A DNA stretch of 64,000 nucleotides from Eledone cirrhosa (lineage: Eukaryota). Below the pieces are notes generated by a model. That model saw only the letters and a program-made list of their open reading frames with translations, was not told the DNA's origin and did no database searches. A program made the position numbers and the translations under genes. The stretch is from positions 6,820,001-6,884,000 of the forward strand of contig OZ024750.1 in the NCBI GenBank assembly GCA_964016885.1, read 5' to 3'. Below are positions 9,492 through 64,000 of this stretch, one piece after another; the first letter of the stretch is position 1; each line of letters opens with the position of its first letter.

Positions 9492-9559
9492 TATTAAATG
9501 CTTTAACATTAATCCATGAAACAGTTCTAGTCCTGTAGAAGCAATTTTCTATATTAAAT

Positions 9560-9745
9560 AATTGTTTCTACTTTGGGCACAAGGCCAGCACTTACCCCAG
9601 TGCATTATTGGTACTTTATTTTACCGACCTCGTAGGGATGAAAGGTAAAGATTAACCTCGGCTGGATTTGAACTCAGATCGTAAAGAGCCGTAACTCTAT
9701 GTTGTAAAGCATGGCGTCCGACTCTCTACCGATACTGCCAATCCA
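9560..9745 (-). mobile_element. SINE family A (tRNA-derived head)
   Basis: Reverse complement: GGATTGGCAGTATCGGTAGAG (A box) ... GAGTTCAAATCC (B box) ... CTTTCATCCC..GAGGTCGGTAAAATAAAGTACC ... GCTGGCCTTGTGCC.AAAGTAGAAACAATT. Confidence 0.9.
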
Positions 9746-9842
9746 AATAATGATGTTTACACTCTATCAATGTATTGAGTGGTAGTCCCCCCCACCCGAT
9801 TTAACTCGGGATCCACACACACACACATATATATGTATACAA

Positions 9843-12629: not shown

Positions 12630-12665
<36 letters not shown>

Positions 12666-12695
12666 AGATCAAAAGATGGTTAAAAGAGTTCCATG

Positions 12696-12766
12696 TATTT
12701 TATTATGCGCATTTCAAAAACAAATATCATCTTGAGATGACATTTGCGTTTTCGTCAGATAAAATA
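12696..12766 (-). ncRNA. Minimal type I hammerhead ribozyme motif, intact core (Penelope-type)
   Basis: Minus strand: UAUUUUAU / CUGACGA / 16-nt-arm stem II with one mismatch and a UCAA loop / GAAA U GCGC A UA / AUAAAAUA. Stem I is 8 bp and stem III is the palindrome AUGCGCAU. Predicted cut between 12704 and 12703. Confidence 0.85.
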
Positions 12767-13154
12767 GGGAGACATGATATGAAGGTTAAAAAACACTTGT
12801 GAATAGTGCAGTTTTAAATCAACAAATCAATATATATATATATATACCCGTGTGCTCTGTGAAAGAGATCTCTCTACTGTGCAATGCCCTCTCTCCAAAT
12901 GTGTGTGACTTTCTTCAAATATTAACATACTACCAGGCTTTACACTGTTTTCACAGAAAGGTTATTTATATATAAATTAAGTCCATGAATTATTTACAAA
13001 ATAGTGAAATATGACGGCTGGTTTTCATAACACATAAATTTATTTAATGACTTTCATAACATGTCTCTCAACATAAGATCCGCGTGGAATATGATATAAA
13101 TATGTCATAAAACTTAGTACTTCTTTCTCCTTATATTCTCACACTAAATTGGTG

Positions 13155-15750: not shown

Positions 15751-15765
15751 ACAAGATATTTCAAT

Positions 15766-15945
15766 TAATTGTTTCTACTTTTGGCACAAGGCCAGCAATT
15801 ATCCCAGTGCATTACTGGTACTTTATTTTATCGACCTCGTAAGGATGAAAGGCAAAGTTAATCTCGGCGGGATTTAAACTCAAACCGTCAAGGGACGTAA
15901 CTCTATTCCGGAAAGCATGGTGCCTGACCTACCGATAGTGCCAAT
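15766..15945 (-). mobile_element. SINE family A
   Basis: Reverse-complement match to 16816-17000, including the B box and core. Confidence 0.9.
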
Positions 15946-16815: not shown

Positions 16816-17000
16816 TGGATTGGCAGTATCGGTAGAGGGTCGGACGCCATGCTTTGACACATAGAGTTACGCCCCTTTCCATTCTGAGTTCAAATCCCGC
16901 CGAGGTTAACTTTGCCTTTCATCCTTACGGAGTCGAGAAAATAAAGTACCAGTAATGCACTGGGATAATTGCTGGCCTTGTGCCAAAAGTAGAAACAATT
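16816..17000 (+). mobile_element. SINE family A, full length
   Basis: A box TGGCAGTATCGG, B box GAGTTCAAATCC, core ACTTTGCCTTTCATCCTTACGGAGTCGAGAAAATAAAGTACCAGT and tail AGAAACAATT. Confidence 0.92.
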
Positions 17001-17207
17001 ATTTCTACTTTAGGCACAAGACCAGCAATTTGGGAGAGAAGGAAGTTGATTAAATCGACCCCAGTGCATTACTGGTTCTTTATTTATCGACCCGGTAAGG
17101 AGGAAATGCAAAGTTAAACCTCGGCGGGATTTGCACTCAGAACGCAAAGGGCCATAACTTTGTGCTGCGAAGCATGGTGTCTGACGCTCCACTGATTCTG
17201 CCAATCC
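17001..17207 (-). mobile_element. SINE family A, long-tail variant, tail-to-tail with the previous copy
   Basis: Reverse-complement copy with an extra GGGTCGATTTAATCAACTTCC segment. Confidence 0.9.
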
Positions 17208-17645
17208 AGTTTTTGCGCTCATTTTTCCATGTTTGCATGGGATAGATAAGTCGTCTCCACTACAGCAGTGTGTGTGTGTGTGTATGTATGAGTGAGTGTG
17301 TGTGTGTGTGTATGAGTGAGTGTGTGTGTGAGTGACGGTGTGTGTGTGTGTGTGTGTATGAGTGAGTGTGTGTGTGTTTGTGTGTGTGTATGAGTGAGTG
17401 TGTGTGTGTGAGTGACGGTGTGTATGAGTGAGTGTGTGTGAGTGAGTGACGGTGTGTGTGTGTGTGTGTATGAGTGAGTGTGTGTGTGTTTGTGTTGGTA
17501 CCTATTTTTGAATCACCTTACATAACTACATCAGTCTCCATGCCTGTGTGTTTATATATGCATATGTGTGTGTATATTCATGCGTGAATCTATATACATA
17601 ATGTATGTATATATGTGTGTGTGTATGTGTATTCATGTATATATG

Positions 17646-18720: not shown

Positions 18721-18723
<3 letters not shown>

Positions 18724-18912
18724 GGAGAAAGTATGACCCCGACGGCAGAGCTCAAGCCGTTTCGACGGCTATTTCTAGACTGAAATAGCCGTCGAAACGG
18801 CTTGAGCTCTGCCGTCGGGGTCATACTTTCTCCTATTACCCACTCTACTACCCTAAGTATTCAGTACTCTGGTGTGTTATGGTCCATCTGGTTTCTTACC
18901 ACAACTCCTCCG

Positions 18913-18914
<2 letters not shown>
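18721..18914 (+). mobile_element. Family P2 element with perfect 55-bp inverted repeat
   Basis: Arms 18721-18775 and 18782-18836, spacer TAGACT. The right arm has GAAA CGGC...GCCG TC and continues into a tail shared with 30666 and 56215. Flanked by (TA)n. Confidence 0.85.
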
Positions 18915-18978
<64 letters not shown>

Positions 18979-22657: not shown

Positions 22658-22838
22658 TCAGCAGTATTGGTAGAGGGTCGGACGCCATGCTTTGCAGCAC
22701 AGTTACGTCCCTTTACGGACTGAGTTCAAATCCCGCCGAGGTTAACTTTGCCTTTCATCCTTACGGGGTCGATAAAATAAAGTACCAGTAATACACTGGC
22801 ATAATTGTTGGCCTTGTGCCAAAAAGTAGAAACAATTA
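22658..22838 (+). mobile_element. SINE family A
   Basis: Same head, core and tail as 16816-17000. Confidence 0.9.
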
Positions 22839-23199
22839 TTTATACCAGAAGTAGTTAAATAAATAACTTATAAAACTCGACATAAAAGAAATAAGAAAGT
22901 GTTAGAAATAGGAGAGAGAAGAAAGAAACTATTATGAAATATTTAACAAGTAAGGTGACATTAGTCAAGTCTTAAATAAATACACTGTGTAAGACATACT
23001 TCTTAGATGTAAACTGGATATATTTTTATTGAAATAATGTCAGCAAGGAATGTTAGGAATCAGAAGGATTTTAAAATCGTCTTGATTCTAGTTTTAAACG
23101 TAACCACATATGTTTGGTTTGTGGGTGTATCTTTACAATGAAGACTGATTTGGGAAGTCACAGGAGCTGAAAGATGAGTAGCAAAGATATGTTTTAGAA

Positions 23200-23559
23200 T
23201 GAGTAACGTTACTCGATAAAGTGCGTAACTCAGAGATCAGAGAGTCACTCCAGGTAGAGTCACTACTTCTCCGAATTGAGGGATCACAGCTCCGATACTA
23301 TAGGGGGCATGTGGTTAGAATGTCTCAGGAAAGAATCACTGGACAGATTTTACGGACAAAACCAACAGGTAGGAGACCCAGGGGTAGACCCCGAGCAAGA
23401 TGGTTGGATAACATCCATGAGCTTGGCTGGTCTCACTTGGGGATCCAGCCAGATCAGTTGGAGATGGTTGCTTCTGACAGGGCCTGCTGGACGGAGTGTT
23501 TGAGGACTCTGTCCCCATGACCCTCTCAGGAATAAGTGGCTGAAGAAGAAGAAGAAGAA
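23200..23559 (+). mobile_element. RTE-clade LINE 5'-truncated copy
   Basis: LLDKVRNSEIRESLQVE.LLLRIE.SQLR...GHVVRM.QER....PTGRRPRGRPRARWLD...ASDRACW followed by a (GAA)n tail. Confidence 0.92.
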
Positions 23560-30650: not shown

Positions 30651-30665
30651 TATATATTTATATAT

Positions 30666-30854
30666 AACGAAGGAGTTGTGGTAAGGAACCAGATGGACCA
30701 TAACGCACCAGAGTACTCAATACTTAGGGTAGTAGAGTGGGTAATAGGAGAAAGTATGACCCCGACGGCAGAGCTCAAGCCGTTTCGATCGCTATTTCTG
30801 GACTGAAATAGCCGTCAAAACGGCTTGAGCTCTGCCGTCGGGGTCATACTTTCT

Positions 30855-30859
<5 letters not shown>
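30666..30859 (-). mobile_element. Family P2 element with 55-bp inverted repeat
   Basis: Arms 30744-30798 and 30805-30859, spacer TGGACT. Mirror image of 18721-18914, flanked by TA repeats. Confidence 0.85.
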
Positions 30860-32607: not shown

Positions 32608-33086
32608 TATGGCAGTATTGGTAGAGCGTCAGACACCATGTTTTGCAGCATAGAGTTATGGCCCTTAACGTTCTGAATTAAAATCCACCCGAGGTTAACT
32701 TTGCCTTTCATCCTTATGAGGTCGATAAAATAAAGTACCAGTAATGCACTGGGGGCGATTTAATCGACTTTCCCCTCTCCCAAAATTGCTGGCCTTGTGC
32801 CTATATAAGAAACCATGTACCAGTAATACACTGGAATAATTGCTGGCCTTGTGCCTATATAAGTAGCCATTATTATTATTATTATTGTTATTGGGGGCGG
32901 TGGATTGGCAGTATCGGTAGAGGGTCGGACGCCATGCTTTGACGCATAGAGTTACGGCCCTTGCCATTCTGAGTGCAAATCCCGCCGAGGTTAACTTTGC
33001 CTTTCATCCTTACGGGGTCGATAAAATAAAGTACCAGTAATGCACTAGGGTAATTGCTGGCCTTGTGCCTAAAGTAGAAACAATTA
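32608..33086 (+). mobile_element. Two SINE family A copies (32608-32812 with duplicated tail to ~32865, and 32896-33086)
   Basis: Each has the A box, B box, core and GCTGGCCTTGTGCC tail. Confidence 0.9.
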
Positions 33087-33313
33087 TTGTTCTTGTTATT
33101 ATTAGCACTGTCACATGACATCAGTGAAGAAAGAGTGTTTAGATTCCTAGCAATAAGATCTGCTAATTCCCTTCAAGACATTCCTTTAATTCTAGTTAAG
33201 CTGTCAGGAGTTGAGGATGTCTGACTTTTTGGATGTGAAATGTTAAAGAAGAATTACAAATAGAAATGAGAGATTGCAGCTATTTCAACCAACAGTTTAT
33301 GTACATGTTTGTT

Positions 33314-34817: not shown

Positions 34818-35006
34818 AGGGTGGTGGATTGGCAGTATCGCTAGAGCGTCGGACGCCATGTTTTGCAGCAAAGAGTTATGACCCTTTATGGTCTGTGTTC
34901 AAATCCCGCCGAAGTTAACTTTGCCTTTCATCCTTACGGGGTCGATAAAATAAAGTACCAGTAATACACTGGGATAATTGCTGGCCTTGTTCCAAAAATA
35001 GAAACA
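34818..35006 (+). mobile_element. SINE family A with 17-bp target-site duplication
   Basis: AATATTTTATATATAAG at 34801-34817 and 35007-35023 flanks a full copy. Confidence 0.92.
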
Positions 35007-35085
35007 AATATTTTATATATAAGTCCACTTAGTTCACTAACTACATTTGTAGAGTGACCAATATCTTCAGTCATACAATACTCAC

Positions 35086-36342: not shown

Positions 36343-36700
36343 GGTGGATTGGCAGTATCGGTAGAGGGTCGGACGCCATGCTTTGACGTATAGAGTTACG
36401 GCCCTTGCCATTCTGAGTTCAAATCCCGCCAAGGTTAACTTTGCCTTTCATCCTTACGGGGTCGATAAAATAAAGTACCAGTAATACACTGGGGTAATTG
36501 CTGGCCTTGTGCCTAACGTAGAAACAATTATAACAGGTGGATTGGCAGTATCAGTAGAGGCTGGGACACCATGCTTTGGTCTGAGTTCAAATCCCGCTGA
36601 GGTTAACTTTGCCTTTCATCCTTACGGGGTCGATAAAATAAAGTACCAGTAATACACTGGAGTAATTGCTGGCCTTGCGCCAAAAGTAGGAACAACTATA
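36343..36700 (+). mobile_element. Two head-to-tail SINE family A copies
   Basis: Both are preceded by TTATAACAGGTGGATTGG. The second has an internal deletion before the B box. Confidence 0.9.
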
Positions 36701-41125: not shown

Positions 41126-42240
41126 CCTGCACCAGTAGATGGAGTGTTTTTAACAATCAGTTGAATGGTCTTTTGTTGTATAGGATCATGGATCATCTAG
41201 TGATGGCTCATCTAATGAGGAAAATCGAAGTTCAGAACATCTGGTGATAGCTCATCTTCTGAACTAGATGGAAGTTCAGAACATCTGGTGATAGCTCCTC
41301 CTCTGAACAAGATGGAAGATCAGAACATCTGTTGATAGCTCTTCCAGCAGGTACTGTCAGAATCAACCGTCTCCAACTAATCCGACTGGATTCCCAAACT
41401 CATGGATGTTACCCAACCACCTTGCTCGGAGTTTACCTATTAAATCATTATTAAAACTGAAATTTATGATTGAACTATAATTTTAGATGGATCCACTTTG
41501 TTTTAGATATAGTTGCACCATCATTATTATATCCATAATGTTAAACAAAACAAATTTAAAACATATACTGTTAATTACGAGTCATTATAAACGAAATCAT
41601 AACAAATTAATCGTTGTATGAAATTATTTTGCATCTGCGCAATGTTCTCTTAGAAAGCAAGTTTTAAATATTTGCACATAAAACTTCTTGTAAATCATTA
41701 TTACAAGGCTAAATTTCATGTAATTGAAACAATGAATTAAAAAAAACATTTTAGTGGACATGTAACAAGTAAATGAGCAGATTTAGCAAATTATATTAAA
41801 TTATTCACAAATTTGACAACCCTGCTCACGTATTTTCTCGCAACTCTCATAGTTATAAAATTCAGTAAGTAACACGATAATGGTTCTATTAATCGAAATA
41901 TTATTAATAAGCAACTAAAACAGAAAATATAAAACAATATAGATGCAAGATAAAAGCATAAAAACTACAAATAACAAAAAAATATGTGAATATATTGAGT
42001 GCGAAAGGTTGAGAGAGAAAGATCAAAAGTTTTTTTCCTTTTTACTGTTTAATTTAACTTCAAGACAAAAGAATGGTTATATGTACATCAAACTGTAGTT
42101 TCGTGTTTATCAATGAAGTTCTTAAAAGAATTATTGATGGATGTTGCTTATCTTTTTGCCGTTCAAACTGAAAATAGTTATTGATATATGTGGAAGAAAA
42201 TGATAAAATAACTGCTATTATTAATTAATATAATTAATTA

Positions 42241-42457
42241 GGGCGGTGGGTTAGCAGTGTCGGTAGAGGGTCAAACACCATGCTTTGCAGAATAGAGTTA
42301 CGGCCCTTTGTGATCTGAGTTCAAATCCCGCCGAGATTGACTTTGCCTTTCATCCTTGCGGGGTCGATAAAATGAAGTACCAGTAACGGACTGGGGTTGA
42401 TTTAATCGACTTTCCCGTTTCCTGTCAAATTGCTGGCCTCGTGACAAACAGAAACAA
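42241..42457 (+). mobile_element. SINE family A, long-tail variant
   Basis: Head, GAGTTCAAATCCCGCCGAG, core GACTTTGCCTTTCATCCTTGCGGGGTCGATAAAATGAAGTACCAGT. Confidence 0.9.
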
Positions 42458-42660
42458 TAGTTAAGAATGCTTCAATAGAGTAGAGACTATATTAATCTCA
42501 CTAAACTTCTAGAATACCGTCATTTACTAAGTCAAATGTCATCATGAAACTGTTATGTAAGATTTTAGTTATTTTCTCATAAAAAAAAACAAATTTTATT
42601 TCGTTTTCAAATCGTACATGTCGTCTCAAAGCACGTTCCTTAGCCATCAAACATGTATAT

Positions 42661-47054: not shown

Positions 47055-47511
47055 GGGTTGTCAGTAATCGGTAGAGCGCCAGACACGAGGTTTTGCAGCA
47101 TAAAGGTACGTCCCTTTACGTTTTGAGTTCAAATCCCGCAGAGGTGAGATTTTCCCCTTTCCTCCCTGCGGAGGTCGATAAAATAAAGTACCAGTAATGC
47201 TCTGGGGTCGATTTAATTGACCCCCCCCCACCTTCCCCTCACTGCTTTTACCAATATATCCACATACATATAAATAATATATATTTAAAACTAAATTTTA
47301 CCATTTTAGTTTGGAATAATTGTATTTATTTCTTGCTTTCTAATCTTTATTCCAAGGAAGCCAATGTTACGCTCCAGTGATCAAACTGACATTGGATCAA
47401 TGATACACCTTCTGAGTTTCGTTGTTGTTCTCCCCCCCCCCCCCTCCCCGCCCTTGTCTCTCATATCCGTGACACTTTAGTTTCGGAATTGAAATTTTAA
47501 TCTGAAATTTG

Positions 47512-47545
<34 letters not shown>

Positions 47546-47730
47546 GTGGATTGTCAGTATCGGTAGAGGGTCGGGCGCCATGCTTTGAAGCATAGAGTTA
47601 CGGCCCTTGCCATTCTGAGTTCAAATCCCGCCGAGGTTAACTTTGCCTTTCATCCTTATGGGGTTGATAAAATAAAGTACCAGTAATGCACTGGGTAATT
47701 ACTGGCCTTGTGCCTAAAGTAGAAACAATT
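47055..47730 (+). mobile_element. Two SINE family A copies (47055-47230 and 47545-47730)
   Basis: B box and GTCGATAAAATAAAGTACCAGT-type core in each. Confidence 0.85.
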
Positions 47731-49063
47731 ATTATTATTCATTCAATGTTCAGTTTGTTGTTTCTTTCAAATCTGTTTCATGTCGTCATTTCAGTTGTTT
47801 CTATTGGTGGGGGGGGGGGGGGGGGGACTTGTTGAGGACCTAAGTGGCCAGAAGGTTAAAAATGGTAGATTCTTTGGCGGCAAGTGTATGATGGTGGTGG
47901 TGGTGGTGATGGTGGTGGGAGTGGGGGTGTTGATGGTGTTGATGACGATGATGGTGGTGGTGGTGTTGATTGTGTTGATGATGAGGATGGTGGTGGTGGT
48001 GGTGTTGATGATGTTAGTGGTGGGGGTGTTGGTGGTGGTGATGATGGTGTTGGTGTTGATGGTGGTGGTGGTGGTGTTGATGGTGGGGGTGTTGGTGGTG
48101 GTGGTGTTGGTGGTGATGATGGTGATGGTGATGGTGTTGATGGTGTTGATGATGATGATGGTGGTGGTGATGGTGTTGATGGTGGGGGTGTTGGTGGTGT
48201 TGATGGTGGGGGTGTTGGTGGTGGTGATGATGGTGGTGGTGGTGGTGATGATGGTGTTTATGATGATGATGATAGTATGGTCGATTCTTTGGCAAGTGTA
48301 TGATGGTGGTGGTGATGATGGTGTTGTTGGTGTTGATGATGATGGAGATAGTGTTGATGATGATGATGGTGGTGGTGGTTTAGAACAATCCACCGTTATT
48401 AATAATGTTATATCATGTAATGGCCATACTCGATAACGAGGGGGCAGCCATCATATATGTATGTATGTGTGTGTATGTATATGCGTGTGTGTATGTGTAT
48501 ATGTGTGTGTATGTATATGTATGCGTGTGTATGGATATGTGTGTGTATGTATATGTATGCGTGCGTATGTATACGTGTCTATGTGTATATGTGTGTGTAT
48601 GTATATGTATGCGTGTGTATGTATATGTGTGTATGTGTATATGTGTGAATATGTATATCTATGCGTGTGTATGTATATGTGTCTATGTGTATATGTGTAT
48701 GTGCATGCGTGTGTATGTATATGTGTGTGTATGTGTATATGTGTGTGTATGTATAAGTGTGTATGTGTATATGTGTGTATATGTATAAGTGTGTATGTGT
48801 ATATGTATGTGTATGTATATATATGTGTGTGTATGTACGTATGTTCTGGTTTATAATGTTATAATGTCTTACCAATAGAGAGTCGGTTTCTAACATAGAC
48901 ACAAGACTCTTTTATTGGAATTTAGACATCAACTTGGTAGATATGTCTGTGTGTGTGTGTGTGTGTGTGTGCAGGTATAGATGTTATTATGTGTGTGGTT
49001 GTGTATGCTTTGAGTTATATATGTACATGTGTACATGCAGTTATTACATGCAGAACCTTTGTA

Positions 49064-50633: not shown

Positions 50634-51771
50634 GAGAGTGTATATATATATATATATAAGAGAGTGTATATATATATATATATGAGGGTGTATATATATA
50701 TATGAGTGTATATATATATATATATGAGAGTGTATATATATATATGAGAGTGTATATATATATATATATGAGAGTGTATATATATATATGAGAGTGTATA
50801 TATATATATATATGAGAGTGTATATATATATATGAGAGTGTATATATATATGAGAGTGTATGTATATATATATATATGAGAGTGTATATATATATATGAG
50901 AGTGTATATATATATATATATATATGAGAGTGTATATATATATATATGAGAGTGTATATATATATATGAGAGTATATATATATATATATGAGAGTGTATA
51001 TATATATATATATGAGAGTGTATATATATATATTTGTGTCTGTTTATTAATTTTGAAGAATAAGATTTTTGGCTTCTGAGTAGAGAGAGTTCTGGTAAAA
51101 TAAATTAGCAACAAGTAACCTTGACTGTAGGTGGCAGCAGTAGTGGTAGTACTATAGTAGAAGTGGTAGTAGTAGTAGTGGTAGTAGTAGTGGTATTATT
51201 AGTAGTTGTAGTAGTAGTAGTAGTACTACTACTAGTAGTTGTAGTAGTAGTAGTTGTAGTAGTAGTAGTAACACTTGGATGGTGTGTGTGAGAGAGAGAA
51301 GGGGATATTATCTCCATCATTCGTTCATCACCACCACCACCACAACCAACCATCACCACCACCACAACCAACCATCACCACCACCATCATCATCATCACC
51401 ACCACAACCATCATTACCACCACAACCATCATCACCACCACCATCATCACCACCACCACCACCATCATCACCACCATCATCACCACCACCATCATCACCA
51501 CTACCACCATCATCACCACCATCACCACCACAACCATCATCACCACCATCATCACCACCATCATCATCACCACCATCACCATCACCACCATCATCACCAC
51601 CATCATCACCACCATCATCATCACCACCATCACCATCACCACCATCATCACCACCATCATCATCATCATCATCATCACCACCATCATCAATATTTTTGTC
51701 ATTAATATTTTTCCCTCGTCAACCTCATTACATCACCATCATCATCATCATCGATATTATTGCCACCATTA

Positions 51772-51866
51772 TTAGCTTTGCCTTTCATCCTTACGGGGTC
51801 GATAAAATAAAGTACCAGTAATGTACTGGGTAATTGCTGGCCTTGTGCCTAAACTAGAAACAATTA
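51772..51866 (+). mobile_element. SINE family A 3' half
   Basis: CTTTGCCTTTCATCCTTACGGGGTCGATAAAATAAAGTACCAGT...AGAAACAATT. Confidence 0.9.
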
Positions 51867-51904
51867 TTATCATTAATACCATCACCGCCGCTGCCATTTG
51901 TTCT

Positions 51905-56180: not shown

Positions 56181-56211
<31 letters not shown>

Positions 56212-56353: not shown

Positions 56354-56549
56354 ATATATATATAAGCAGAAGGGATATTCAATTTATTGGTAATTCAATA
56401 AATATAAATGTTTATAACTGATTTAGAGCACTCAACAGAATTTCTGGAGTATAATATACAATGATATTAAATATGTGACTTTCCAGGAATAACTTGAGCC
56501 GTTAAGGTATATTATCCTTGGTTATGTCAAATATTTATAAAATATCTTG

Positions 56550-56610
56550 TATTTTATCTGATGAGAGCGTACCAAAATTTTGGTACCCTTGAAATATATA
56601 TAATAGAATA
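56550..56610 (+). ncRNA. Minimal type I hammerhead ribozyme motif, intact core
   Basis: UAUUUUAU / CUGAUGA (56558-56564) / GAG c GUACCAA..UUGGUAC c CUU / GAAA U AUAU A UA / AUAGAAUA. Predicted cut after 56602. An extra 12-bp helix (56531-56542 with 56618-56629) extends stem I. Confidence 0.85.
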
Positions 56611-56654
56611 AATATGGTTTTATAAATATAGTTTCCATTTATTTAATATCATTG

Positions 56655-57493: not shown

Positions 57494-57880
57494 TATTAAT
57501 AAAAGGAATTCCAACTTTGTCTGATTTACTCGTTTTATTTACAATCCTTTAAAATTTATAATGGTATTATAATGAAATAGTATGATAGAATATTAAATGT
57601 TAAGTGTTAATTGAACAAGTACTTCCATGCTTTCGCAATCTTCAGGTTCATATTCTGTGGTGACAGTCAAGTTTACAATTTTCAACTGTTGAAAATTGTA
57701 AACTTGACTGTCACCACTGAATATGAACCTGAAGATTGCGAAAGCATGGAAGTACTTGTTCAATTAACACTTAACATTTAATATTCTATCATACTATTTC
57801 ATTATAATACCATTATAAATTTTAAAGGATTGTAAATAAAACGAGTAAATCAGACAAAGTTGGAATTCCTTTTATTAATA
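57494..57880. repeat. 387-bp palindrome (193-bp arms, 1-nt centre, 1 mismatch) with hammerhead-like motif in each arm
   Basis: Centre T at 57687 (TTTTCAAC-T-GTTGAAAA). The only mismatch seen is 57656 against 57718. Motif at 57724-57762 (+) and 57612-57650 (-). Confidence 0.95.
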
Positions 57881-59192: not shown

Positions 59193-61522
59193 CCGTGCTT
59201 CTTCTCTCATCCTCTGTCAACTATGAAGGCCTTAAGTATTTAATAAAAACAGTATTTGTCACAGACTTAACCGTGCTTCTTCTCTCGTCCTGTCAACTAT
59301 GAAGGCCTTAAGTATTTAATAAAAACAGTATTTGTCACAGACTTAACCATGCTTCTTCTCTCATCCTCTGTCAGCTATGAAGGCCTTAAGTATTTAATAA
59401 AAACAGTATTTGTCACAGACTTAACCATGCTTCTTCTCTCATCCTCTGTCAGCTATGAAGGCCTTAAGTATTTAATAAAAACAGTATTTGTCACAGACTT
59501 AACCGTGCTTCTTCTCTCGTCCTGTCAACTATGAAGGCCTTAAGTATTTAATAAAAACAGTATTTGTCACAGACTTAACCATGCTTCTTCTCTCATCCTC
59601 TGTCAGCTATGAAGGCCTTAAGTATTTAATAAAAACAGTATTTGTCACAGACTTAACCATGCTTCTTCTCTCATCCTCTGTCAGCTATGAAGGCCTTAAG
59701 TATTTAATAAAAACAGTATTTGTCACAGACTTAACCGTGCTTCTTCTCTCGTCCTGTCAACTATGAAGGCCTTAAGTATTTAATAAAAACAGTATTTGTC
59801 ACAGACATAACCGTGCTTCTTCTCTCGTCCCCTGTCAGCTATGAAGGCCTTAAGTATTTAATAAAAACAGTATTTGTCACAGACTTAACCATGCTTCTTC
59901 TCTCGTCCCCTGTCAACTATGAAGGCCTTAAGTATTTAATAAAAACAGTATTTGTCACAGACTTAACCGTGCTTCTTCTCTCGTCCTGTCAACTATGAAG
60001 GCCTTAAGTATTTAATAAAAACAGTATTTGTCACAGACTTAACCGTGCTTCTTCTCTCGTCCCCTGTCAACTATGAAGGCCTTAAGTATTTAATAAAAAC
60101 AGTATTTGTCACAGACATAACCGTGCTTCTTCTCTCATCCTCTGTCAACTATGAAGGCCTTAAGTATTTAATAAAAACAGTATTTGTCACAGACTTAACC
60201 ATGCTTCTTCTCTCATCCTCTGTCAGCTATGAAGGCCTTAAGTATTTAATAAAAACAGTATTTGTCACAGACTTAACCATGCTTCTTCTCTCATCCTCTG
60301 TCAACTATGAAGGCCTTAAGTATCTAATAAAAACAGTATTTGTCACAGACTTAACCGTGCTTCTTCTCTCGTCCTGTCAACTATGAAGGCCTTAAGTATT
60401 TAATAAAAACAGTATTTGTCACAGACTTAACCATGCTTCTTCTCTCATCCTCTGTCAGCTATGAAGGCCTTAAGTATTTAATAAAAACAGTATTTGTCAC
60501 AGACTTAACCGTGCTTCTTCTCTCGTCCCCGGTCAACTATGAAGGCCTTAAGTATTTAATAAAAACAGTATTTGTCACAGACTTAACCGTGCTTCTTCTC
60601 TCGTCCCCTGTCAACTATGAAGGCCTTAAGTATCTAATAAAAACAGTATTTGTCACAGACTTAACCGTGCTTCTTCTCTCGTCCCCTGTCAACTATGAAG
60701 GCCTTAAGTATTTAATAAAAACAGTATTTGTCACAGACTTAACCGTGCTTCTTCTCTCGTCCCCTGTCAACTATGAAGGCCTTAAGTATTTAATAAAAAC
60801 AGTATTTGTCACAGACTTAACCGTGCTTCTTCTCTCGTCCCCTGTCAACTATGAAGGCCTTAAGTATCTAATAAAAACAGTATTTGTCACAGACATAACC
60901 GTGCTTCTTCTCTCGTCCCCTGTCAACTATGAAGGCCTTAAGTATTTAATAAAAACAGTATTTGTCACAGACATAACCGTGCTTCTTCTCTCGTCCCCTG
61001 TCAACTATGAAGGCCTTAAGTATCTAATAAAAACAGTATTTGTCACAGACATAACCGTGCTTCTTCTCTCGTCCCCTGTCAACTATGAAGGCCTTAAGTA
61101 TCTAATAAAAACAGTATTTGTCACAGACTTAACCGTGCTTCTTCTCTCGTCCCCTGTCAACTATGAAGGCCTTAAGTATCTAATAAAAACAGTATTTGTC
61201 ACAGACTTAACCGTGCTTCTTCTCTCGTCCCCTGTCAACTATGAAGGCCTTAAGTATTTAATAAAAACAGTATTTGTCACAGACATAACCGTGCTTCTTC
61301 TCTCGTCCCCTGTCAACTATGAAGGCCTTAAGTATTTAATAAAAACAGTATTTGTCACAGACATAACCGTGCTTCTTCTCTCGTCCCCTGTCAACTATGA
61401 AGGCCTTAAGTATTTAATAAAAACAGTATTTGTCACAGACATAACCGTGCTTCTTCTCTCGTCCCCTGTCAACTATGAAGGCCTTAAGTATCTAATAAAA
61501 ACAGTATTTGTCACAGACATAA
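59193..61522. repeat. 78-bp satellite, about 30 copies
   Basis: Unit CC(A/G)TGCTTCTTCTCTC(A/G)TCC(T/C)CTGTCA(A/G)CTATGAAGGCCTTAAGTATTTAATAAAAACAGTATTTGTCACAGAC(T/A)TAA, with 76-bp variants. Confidence 0.97.
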
Positions 61523-63567
61523 GCTCACGTAAGAACCGTGTCTATAACTCCGTTTCAACTCCCGGTTAAAGCTATTGTGTTTAAGAAAAAAAAAACACAC
61601 GATGCACTGCACATGAAAACAGCAGAAGGTGCGTAAATTAAGAAATATCAATCAACGGTAATAATTATTTATCATTATCAATTATTATTAATTATTATTT
61701 AATATTTGTCATAGTATAATTATTAGTATAGTTATTAAACTAGCTGGCTGTATTTGTCTTTCTCTGTCTGATAGAGGCTGTGTGCATGTGTGATTCTGTA
61801 GTAAGAGAAAAGGCGGCGGCGGCGGCGAGTGTACCATGTGCAAGATGTGATAGTTAAAGGGAGGGGGGAACATGCAACATTAAGCCTAAAGACTGTTGCA
61901 GCAGCAGCAGTAACACTAGCAGCAGCAGCAGCTTATTACGGTCGCACTGTGCCAAACTCGAAAGACAGGAATCCTGCTTTGTTCTGTAAGCAACCTATTT
62001 TATATATTCTCTCAACTTGATGCTCACATTGTATCCTATTCCAGATATATAGTTCTTCTTCTTCTGTGAGAGAAAGTACTAAACACACGCGTATATACAT
62101 ACACACACACACACACACACATGTATACACACGTACACACACACACACACATGTATACACACGTACACACACACACACATGTATACACACGTACACACAC
62201 ATGTACATACACTCGTACACACACACACACATGTATACACACGTACACACACACACACACATGTACACACACTCGTACACACACATGTACACACACACAT
62301 GTACACACACTCGTACACACACATGTACACACACAATCACGTTCACACACACACACACACACACATATGTGTACACACACATGTACACTCACACGTACAC
62401 ATACGCACACGTACACACACACACGTTAACACGTACACACATATACACACACATACATGTATGCACAACACATGTACGTACACACATACGTATACACACA
62501 CAACACACCTACGTACACACATACGTGCTCATATACACACACACACAACACATACGTACCCACATACGTACCCACACGCACAACACACGTACGTACACAC
62601 ATACGTACTCATATACACACACACACATCTACATGCACACGTACGTACACACACGTACACACACACACAGATATATTAGTGTAGAAACACACACATTCAG
62701 CCTTACACCAACCAGTTCTGTCTTATATTCTGTCTCAGAGAAACCCGCTCAATAGAAAGTTTCAAGTTTGTGTTGTATTTGTTAAATATTAAGGCCTGGA
62801 TATTGAGGCCCTGGCTTGGCTGTGTCTTAATGACCCAATAAGGGGCTGGTGATGATGAGGGCTAGATTGATGGTGGTGGGGGTTATAGTGGTGGTGATGG
62901 TGGGGGTTATAGTGGTGATGGTGGTGATGGTGAGGGTTATAGTGGTGGTGGTGATGGTGATGGTTATAGTGGTGGTGGTGATGGTGATGGTTATAGTGGT
63001 GGTGGTGATGGTTATAGTGGTGATGGTGATGGTGATGGTTAGAATGAGGATAGGGGTAATTACAGTGACGATAATGAGGGTCAGTGATGATAATGGTGAT
63101 TAGGGTGATTGTGATGGTTATAGTGATGGTGATGGGGGTGATGGTTATAGTGATGGTGATGGGTGTGATGGTTATAGTGATGATGATGGTTATAGTGGTG
63201 GTGATGGTGATGGGGCTTATGGTGATGGTGATGGGGGTGATGGTGATGGTTATAGTGATGGTGATGGGGGTTATAGTGATGGTGATGATGGTTATAGTGT
63301 TGGTGATGATGGTTATAGTGTTGGTGATGATGGTTATAGTGTTGGTGATGATGGTGATGGTCAGTGAGGATAATGGTGACTAGAATGATGATAGTGATTG
63401 CTAAAATGATGAGAGTGATGATGACAACGATGATGATGATGATAACCGCAATTATTCACAAGGACAATAAAAACGAAAATAAAAATTCTAGAAACAACAA
63501 AATTGAGCATCAATAAGGAGGGAGTTGTAACATAAGAGGATTTCATTAATATTACTGTTAACACTAA

Positions 63568-63650
<83 letters not shown>

Positions 63651-63685
63651 TATAAGTATTAATAAAATAGATGTTCTTTTGATCA

Positions 63686-63749
63686 ATTACATTTTATTAT
63701 ACATATTTCGGAGGTACAAACAGTACGTCCTCATCAGACAAAATATAAT
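63686..63749 (-). ncRNA. Minimal type I hammerhead ribozyme motif, intact core (left arm)
   Basis: Minus strand: AUUAUAUUUUGU / CUGAUGA / GGA c GUAC UGUUU GUAC c UCC / GAAA U AUGU A UA / AUAAAAUGUAAU. Confidence 0.85.
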
Positions 63750-63841
63750 GATACATGACATACCCTGAGGTGTTAAATGGTTAAGATTTAATCAAGGTAG
63801 TAAATCTTAACCATTTAACATCTCAGGGTATGTCATGTATC

Positions 63842-63904
63842 ATTATATTTTGTCTGATGAGGACGTACTGTTGTACATCCGAAATATGTATAATAAAATG
63901 TAAT
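63842..63904 (+). ncRNA. Minimal type I hammerhead ribozyme motif, intact core (right arm)
   Basis: 12-bp stem I with two G-U pairs, CUGAUGA at 63854-63860, GAAA at 63881-63884, triplet AUA. Predicted cut after 63892. Confidence 0.87.
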
Positions 63905-64000
63905 TGATCAAAACAACATCTATTTTATTAATACTTATATTTTAATATTAATAACTCCTGAAAATTATTTTTTCCGTTGAGTGCTTCCAATCTACTGTAA

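Follow-up and report, generated by a model that had tools for sequence, protein, structure and literature searches.

The foldback at 63642–63948 in the analysed DNA of Eledone cirrhosa most likely represents the inverted structure already known from insertions of Penelope-like retrotransposons (PLEs), left behind as a by-product of insertion. The DNA analysed (hereafter, the window) comprises 64,000 nt of the + strand of contig OZ024750.1 (6,820,001–6,884,000; assembly GCA_964016885.1), a setting of dense microsatellites and dispersed repeats that is non-coding as far as tested. The two arms of the foldback are identical at 145 of 149 positions (three substitutions and one indel over 149 alignment columns) and are separated by ten unpaired bases (Table 1). 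The RNA of 63642–63949 is predicted to fold into a single hairpin (−215 kcal/mol; z, −32.6), which was matched by none of 100 shuffled sequences. The alignment of the arms and the positions of the cores agree with the original prediction of twin inverted arms of ~149 bp, each having an outward type I hammerhead motif.

Arms, hammerhead motifs, and flanks

The core CUGANGA ... GAAA ... NUH is present in both arms together with stems I and II. Stem I contains 12 pairs, stem II contains seven pairs with one internal mismatch, and stem III consists of an 8-nt self-complementary word. A degenerate pattern, itself fitted to these motifs, has four matches in the window and none in 100 shuffled sequences. 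Among the four related motifs of the window, the very short palindromic stem III is formed by three different self-complementary words, and the stem II mismatch is found by eye at the fourth position in all four (for example, 63864/63877), so that it may be a conserved structural feature. Related solo hammerhead motifs are located at 56543–56654 (+) and 12660–12830 (−). The solo motifs at +56558 and −12758 have a longer stem II and palindromic stem III words differing from the word of the arms. These motifs end in (TA)n at 52 nt (+56558) and 43 nt (−12758) past the cut site, the corresponding distance in the left arm being 52 nt, and the motif at 12758 is bordered by (TA)n to its left and right alike.

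No match was obtained in the whole window with Rfam at the gathering score, and a search of 63500–64000 at E ≤ 10 gave 15 sub-threshold matches, with generic hairpin models on top and no hammerhead among them. The hammerhead family that the Rfam model search had been expected to return was therefore found at neither level, which weakens membership in Rfam Hammerhead_1 and leaves the motif call standing. The designation as a minimal type I ribozyme is correct for the type I core, but the variant is that with a small palindromic helix III and not the helix-III-less minimal motif (PMC4209133). A microRNA precursor was considered and rejected, the best Rfam match being a generic hairpin match of 60.4 bits against a cut-off of 90. 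The search for tRNA likewise found none. Outside the window, the exact arm motif had no match in the metagenome collection, and the degenerate hammerhead pattern had none in viral contigs. The seven matches of the degenerate pattern in metagenomes were dismissed as chance, with six of them lying inside long frames of gene-dense contigs; none of the seven has stem I complementarity (by eye) or similarity to the window.

The left (TA)n tract contains one short repeat of the outer end of the arm near 63607–63617. No open frame starting in the arms was found by eye, and no target duplication is visible at the locus, where the window ends inside the right extension. The earlier statement that no coding remnant accompanies the foldback holds for the left side only; on the right side, the family sequence runs through 63949–64000, where the window ends, and past that point a longer element may follow on from the right arm. 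Also by eye, a splice-donor-like word is seen at 63828, and an acceptor-like pyrimidine tract at 63965–63979 in the extension. PLEs keep introns in the 5′ UTR, and the ribozyme motif might lie within an intron.

Table 1. Positions in the window of the foldback, its hammerhead motifs, and its flanks
Feature	Positions	Strand	Basis
(TA)n tract adjoining the left arm; likely insertion target	63570..63641	.	Sequence
Left arm: inverted 5′-truncated copy of the 3′ end of the repeat, pLTR-like	63642..63790	-	Alignment, family depth
Type I hammerhead motif, left arm; C3 63737, G12 63709, predicted cut 63698/63697	63686..63749	-	
Junction: loop 63791–63800 and half of the family hairpin 63788–63794	63788..63801	+	Loose ends behind 63801
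Right arm: direct 5′-truncated copy of the same 3′ end	63801..63948	+	Alignment, family depth
Type I hammerhead motif, right arm; C3 63854, G12 63881, AUA, predicted cut 63892/63893	63842..63904	+	
Self-complementary stem III word; two pairs as monomer, up to eight (two G-U) as dimer	63884..63891	+	
One-sided family extension (tail or start of element body), right arm only, reaching the window end	63949..64000	+	Family depth

Repeat family and junctions

The family was surveyed by comparing four of the 12 listed sequencing runs (X1, X5, X6, and X10) with 63642–64000 at 85% likeness. Organism A is represented by the X1 contigs and by the X10 RAD reads, the latter from a separate study; the window itself may have been sequenced from the X1 sample, which is hence not counted as independent. 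Matches were found in 1669 X1 contigs and 1591 X10 reads of organism A and in three records each of organisms B and C, including a 273-nt contig of organism B that matches 63642–63801 with four other letters and one gap. Summed depth is not equal to copy number, and repetitiveness was judged from the count of distinct contigs, by which the arms are shown to belong to a highly repeated family.

Most copies of the family continue single-armed through the centre (292 X10 reads, nine X1 contigs, and one X5 contig past 63801), and the loop therefore belongs to the left arm. The summed depth of X1 drops from 121,250 at 63942–63953 to 21,089 at 63990–64000 without vanishing, and therefore most copies end near 63948 and some extend, the copy in the window by at least 52 nt. 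The extension is covered by X1 contigs spanning 63889–63998 and 63910–64000, and by 237 X10 reads at 63990–64000. Altogether, the depth profile, the loose ends, and ten joints reveal 5′-truncated copies with a common 3′ end, which an inverted copy adjoins head to head. Pile-ups of X10 read ends at 63685–63688, 63902–63905, and 63969 were examined as ribozyme cuts and discarded; they lie at or beside AATT words and are taken to be RAD restriction ends.

At 63653/63937, both arms have the minority letter, with the other letter found in 151 of 221 and 50 of 71 X10 reads, respectively, and the same applies to 63656/63934 (183 of 225 and 67 of 72 X10 reads); such shared minority letters are expected from one template or one subfamily. 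Stem II is short in both arms, whereas the loose ends at 63717 and 63873 reveal a further subfamily in which it is long. As for the four differences between the arms, the family reads have the other letter at 63770 (394 of 405) and 63914 (57 of 60) and leave the letter out at 63718 (194 of 239). The letters at these three positions are thus rare in the family and private to one arm. The fourth difference (63713/63877) consists of two different letters that are both common in the family, which would also be compatible with two templates.

In the family copies, the letters beyond 63801 complete the reverse complement of 63788–63794, yielding a hairpin with a 7-bp stem and a 6-nt loop; a stem of this size would arise by chance close to any one position with a probability of ~0.02. 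The other half of this hairpin is shortened at the present locus, which has four bases fewer than a clean fold-back product. In ten of the 13 joints listed, the left arm passes on one strand into the right arm or its extension, as expected of other head-to-head insertions; of the remaining joints, one is an internal skip and two connect opposite strands. Each joint is a single contig with 20–30 letters on the short side at 85% likeness, flagged as uncertain and weak alone. The break points of the head-to-head joints vary between copies, and five of the ten fall at 63796–63801 (binomial probability, 1.6e-4 if uniform over ~165 positions). In four joints, the direct part starts at 63969–63979, outside the mirrored arm. 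Among the records listed, no read or contig bridges this exact junction with at least 31 letters on each side.

Other foldbacks and repeats in the window

A census of low-mismatch foldbacks revealed four in the 64-kb window versus none in each of three resampled controls. The foldback at 57494–57880, with a sequence unrelated to that of 63642–63948, has 193-bp arms with one mismatch and a 1-nt centre. Each of its arms contains a hammerhead-like core facing outward (+57729 and −57645), in which A13 is replaced by G. It is flanked by (CT)n on the left, and by ~30 nt followed by a TA-rich tract on the right. The third foldback family (18721–18836 and 30744–30859) is located in (TA)n and has 55-bp arms and a 77-nt one-sided extension. 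No hammerhead core was detected in it under a relaxed scan. With respect to the extension, the 6-nt loop of one full copy is reversed compared with that of the other (flip/flop). The full spans of this family are 18721–18919 and 30664–30859, with a degraded copy near 2250–2424 and half copies at 56209, 42661, 45007, and 9819, mostly in (TA)n. Because the same geometry is found in a family without a hammerhead and in a family with a non-consensus core, it is independent of a working ribozyme. Judged from the geometry, the family of 57494–57880 may be a PLE, and the third family could be the end of a hammerhead-less PLE.

The window also contains many copies of a dispersed repeat of ~190 bp, which may be an octopus-type SINE (9547–9754, 15756–15945, 16816–17208, 22661–22842, 32610–33088, 34825–35022, 36345–36699, 42247–42463, 47055–47733, and 51771–51868). 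The copies at 16816–17208 form an inverted pair, and in one organism C contig the repeat is linked to the arm. A motif of the dispersed repeat had nine matches in viral contigs. A 78-bp tandem repeat at ~60000–61600, with units 96–99% identical, has a 404-codon open frame, and satellites of 137, 99, and 96 bp are found elsewhere in the window. A short repeat present in two copies (23383–23491 and 41343–41437) has no Pfam match; it may resemble the C-terminal portion of the reverse transcriptase gene of LINEs. Finally, the 150 longest of the 210 non-repetitive frames (566 frames of at least 45 aa in the window) were searched against Pfam, giving no RT/GIY-YIG domain and nothing at the cut-off; nine weak sub-cut-off matches were obtained in eight of these frames.

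Probable origin of the foldback and predicted state of its hammerheads

The locus closely resembles the inverted pLTR of endonuclease-bearing PLEs, which, in the consulted sections of Craig et al. (2021; PMC8557442) and Arkhipova et al. (2013; PMC3846280), has head-to-head arms with the 3′ ends outward, a one-sided extension, a (TA)n flank, and a short junction palindrome. The same sections describe PLE insertions with an inverted 5′-truncated copy at the 5′ end, a 30–40 bp one-sided tail, and (TA)n targets (PMC8557442), and palindromes at head-to-head junctions that are read as self-priming (PMC3846280). In the present window, (TA)n terminates the left arm as well as the two solo motifs, the family hairpin of 7 bp occupies the junction, and the arm length is near the 180–220 bp reported for pLTRs. 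Unlike the published structures as excerpted, the locus has no ORF between the arms, and its extension of at least 52 nt, up to the window end, exceeds the reported tail. The earlier assignment to PLEs is thus consistent with every structural feature tested, but a link to an RT/GIY-YIG frame was not obtained among the frames of the window that were searched. Part of a study of Octopus vulgaris describes 31 recently active Penelope-like families in that species (PMC13282606).

The motifs themselves are comparable to the PLE hammerheads described in the consulted part of Cervera and de la Peña (2014; PMC4209133), sharing the type I fold with an intact core, the palindromic stem III word, G-C at 10.1–11.1, and many dispersed copies. 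That part also mentions the variant whose helix III is small and palindromic, as well as dual minimal hammerheads placed on opposite strands at a distance of ~100–700 bp. The motifs of the window differ from those hammerheads in the long stem I and in the stem II mismatch, which is at the same place in all four. Beyond the remark on opposite strands, the literature surveyed gave no account of twin-hammerhead foldbacks lacking an ORF. Non-LTR retrozymes, as excerpted from Li, Clavereau, and Pollet (2026) and Cervera and de la Peña (2020), are likewise non-coding and PLE-related with a type I hammerhead, but they consist of head-to-tail tandem units with two sense ribozymes, whereas the two motifs here are on opposite strands with no dimer in cis; with no tandem array at the locus, a non-LTR retrozyme was rejected. 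The Anolis Poseidon element PAc (Frangieh et al. 2024; PMC11167929) also has an AT-rich target, and its two RT starts explain a one-sided tail. Its hammerhead is not needed for insertion, and its ORF starts inside the hammerhead, unlike the arms described here, in which no start of an open frame is seen by eye.

Based on these likenesses, the following course of events may be proposed. The PLE protein, which in the case of PAc cuts and extends both strands of AT-rich DNA and has two start sites accounting for the tail (PMC11167929), would cut the AT-rich target and begin copying the element RNA close to the 3′ end of that RNA. The nascent cDNA would stop at the short hairpin located ~60 nt upstream of the hammerhead core, fold back, and copy itself, and trimming of one end by the endonuclease would leave the extension on one arm. 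The hammerheads would be passengers of the copied end, in line with the finding that hammerhead mutants still insert in vitro with insertion unaffected (PMC11167929). From the orientation of the loop, the antisense strand would be the one folded. Since the extension cannot derive from a simple fold-back starting at the left flank, either an outer start site with subsequent trimming, or priming of both target ends with the two strands meeting at the hairpin, would have to be assumed. Within the PLE reading, we lean slightly toward the fold-back of one cDNA, which the shared minority letters favour. Priming from both broken ends, joined at the hairpin, is a less probable route, favoured by the four joints starting at 63969–63979, and repair by the host at a later stage is unlikely. 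The formation of inverted one-tailed PLE insertions is called unresolved in the consulted sections of PMC8557442 and PMC3846280.

Explanations other than a PLE insertion were weighed against the same evidence. It is very unlikely that a solo copy was inserted first and that DNA repair by the host, or a fold-back during replication, produced the inversion at the short hairpin afterwards. The break points do cluster at the hairpin, and fold-back inversions through single-strand hairpins have been described in yeast (excerpts of PMC7467729), but the mirrored region ends at the main 3′ end of the family (depth drop at 63948–63954) without including unique flank, 57494–57880 likewise takes in no flank, and three families show the geometry in one window. 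Short, non-coding, inverted arms in many copies, together with the one centre shared by two copies of the third family, would also be expected of a MITE or foldback DNA transposon, or of a hammerhead SINE or retrozyme, moving as a two-armed unit. Such a unit, highly improbable overall, is largely refuted for the family of 63642–63948 by the mostly single-armed continuation (292 reads), varied junctions, asymmetric ends, and lack of a tandem array. A fold-back artefact of the assembly or library is hardly credible: although no record listed bridges the junction and inverted PLE structures are reported to trouble assemblies (a section of PMC8557442), the arms differ at four places, three of them rare in the family reads, the outer flanks differ, and other head-to-head joints are found in independent short-read contigs.

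The original prediction had further proposed that read-through RNA masks the ribozymes and that cleavage depends on the start site of transcription. Transcription from either side makes the antisense arm first. When + strand RNAs with a common end at 63990 were folded, the probability of stems I and II was 0 for starts left of 63680, with a cost of 71 kcal/mol for forcing the hammerhead, and ~0.8–0.9 for starts at 63760–63830, with a cost of ~2 kcal/mol. The folding model thus supports the masking, and read-through RNA is predicted to bury the hammerheads in a 149-bp duplex. Control of cleavage by the start site follows only weakly from this: the predicted accessibility shifts with the start, but an RNA started at the centre contains one motif and has no partner in cis. 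Moreover, a monomer must spend 2.8 kcal/mol to close its stem III, and the 8-nt helix of a dimer provides only −2.2 kcal/mol. In the consulted part of PMC4209133, the related helix-III-less minimal motif does not cleave when single and cleaves at a low level in dimers, and one PLE hammerhead cleaves only with its protein (PMC11167929). With one motif, a costly stem III, and a cis partner that is antisense only, cleavage would therefore need another RNA of the family or the protein.

A regulatory switch maintained by selection, in which the ribozyme is masked in read-through RNA that serves ADAR or Dicer as a substrate while RNA started near the centre cleaves itself, is accordingly very improbable. 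An octopus source of the DNA bears on this only through the likelihood of ADAR editing. The sharp change in modelled accessibility, the antisense-first order on either strand, and the internal promoters that PLE ends can hold (an excerpt of PMC2377424) are in its favour. These points are countered by the single sense motif per strand without a cis dimer, the poor energetics of stem III, the inactivity of related motifs as monomers or their dependence on protein, the recurrence of the geometry without a hammerhead, and the junctions that differ between copies; no sign of conservation was obtained for the locus. The predicted masking follows from the geometry itself, and nothing in the evidence points to selection for it.

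A broader role may be imagined for such structures, though we consider it doubtful. The genome would contain very many tiny resolved PLE foldbacks, with junctions fixed by hairpins of the family, the tail on either arm, and priming at both ends. Since transcription always reaches the antisense arm before the sense arm, these foldbacks could not cut host pre-mRNA. They would thus persist within genes from which solo sense copies are removed, forming a standing pool of long dsRNA for editing or small-RNA silencing of their parent elements.

Most likely, the locus is a further case of the known inverted insertion of PLEs. As the expected footprint of a known class of retroelements, a single locus matters little alone. 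It does call for caution in annotation, in that such palindromes escape the hammerhead models of Rfam yet score against microRNA models. The short foldbacks, the break points clustered at a hairpin, and the loop found either way round in the third family provide material with which self-priming and two-ended priming could be separated computationally.
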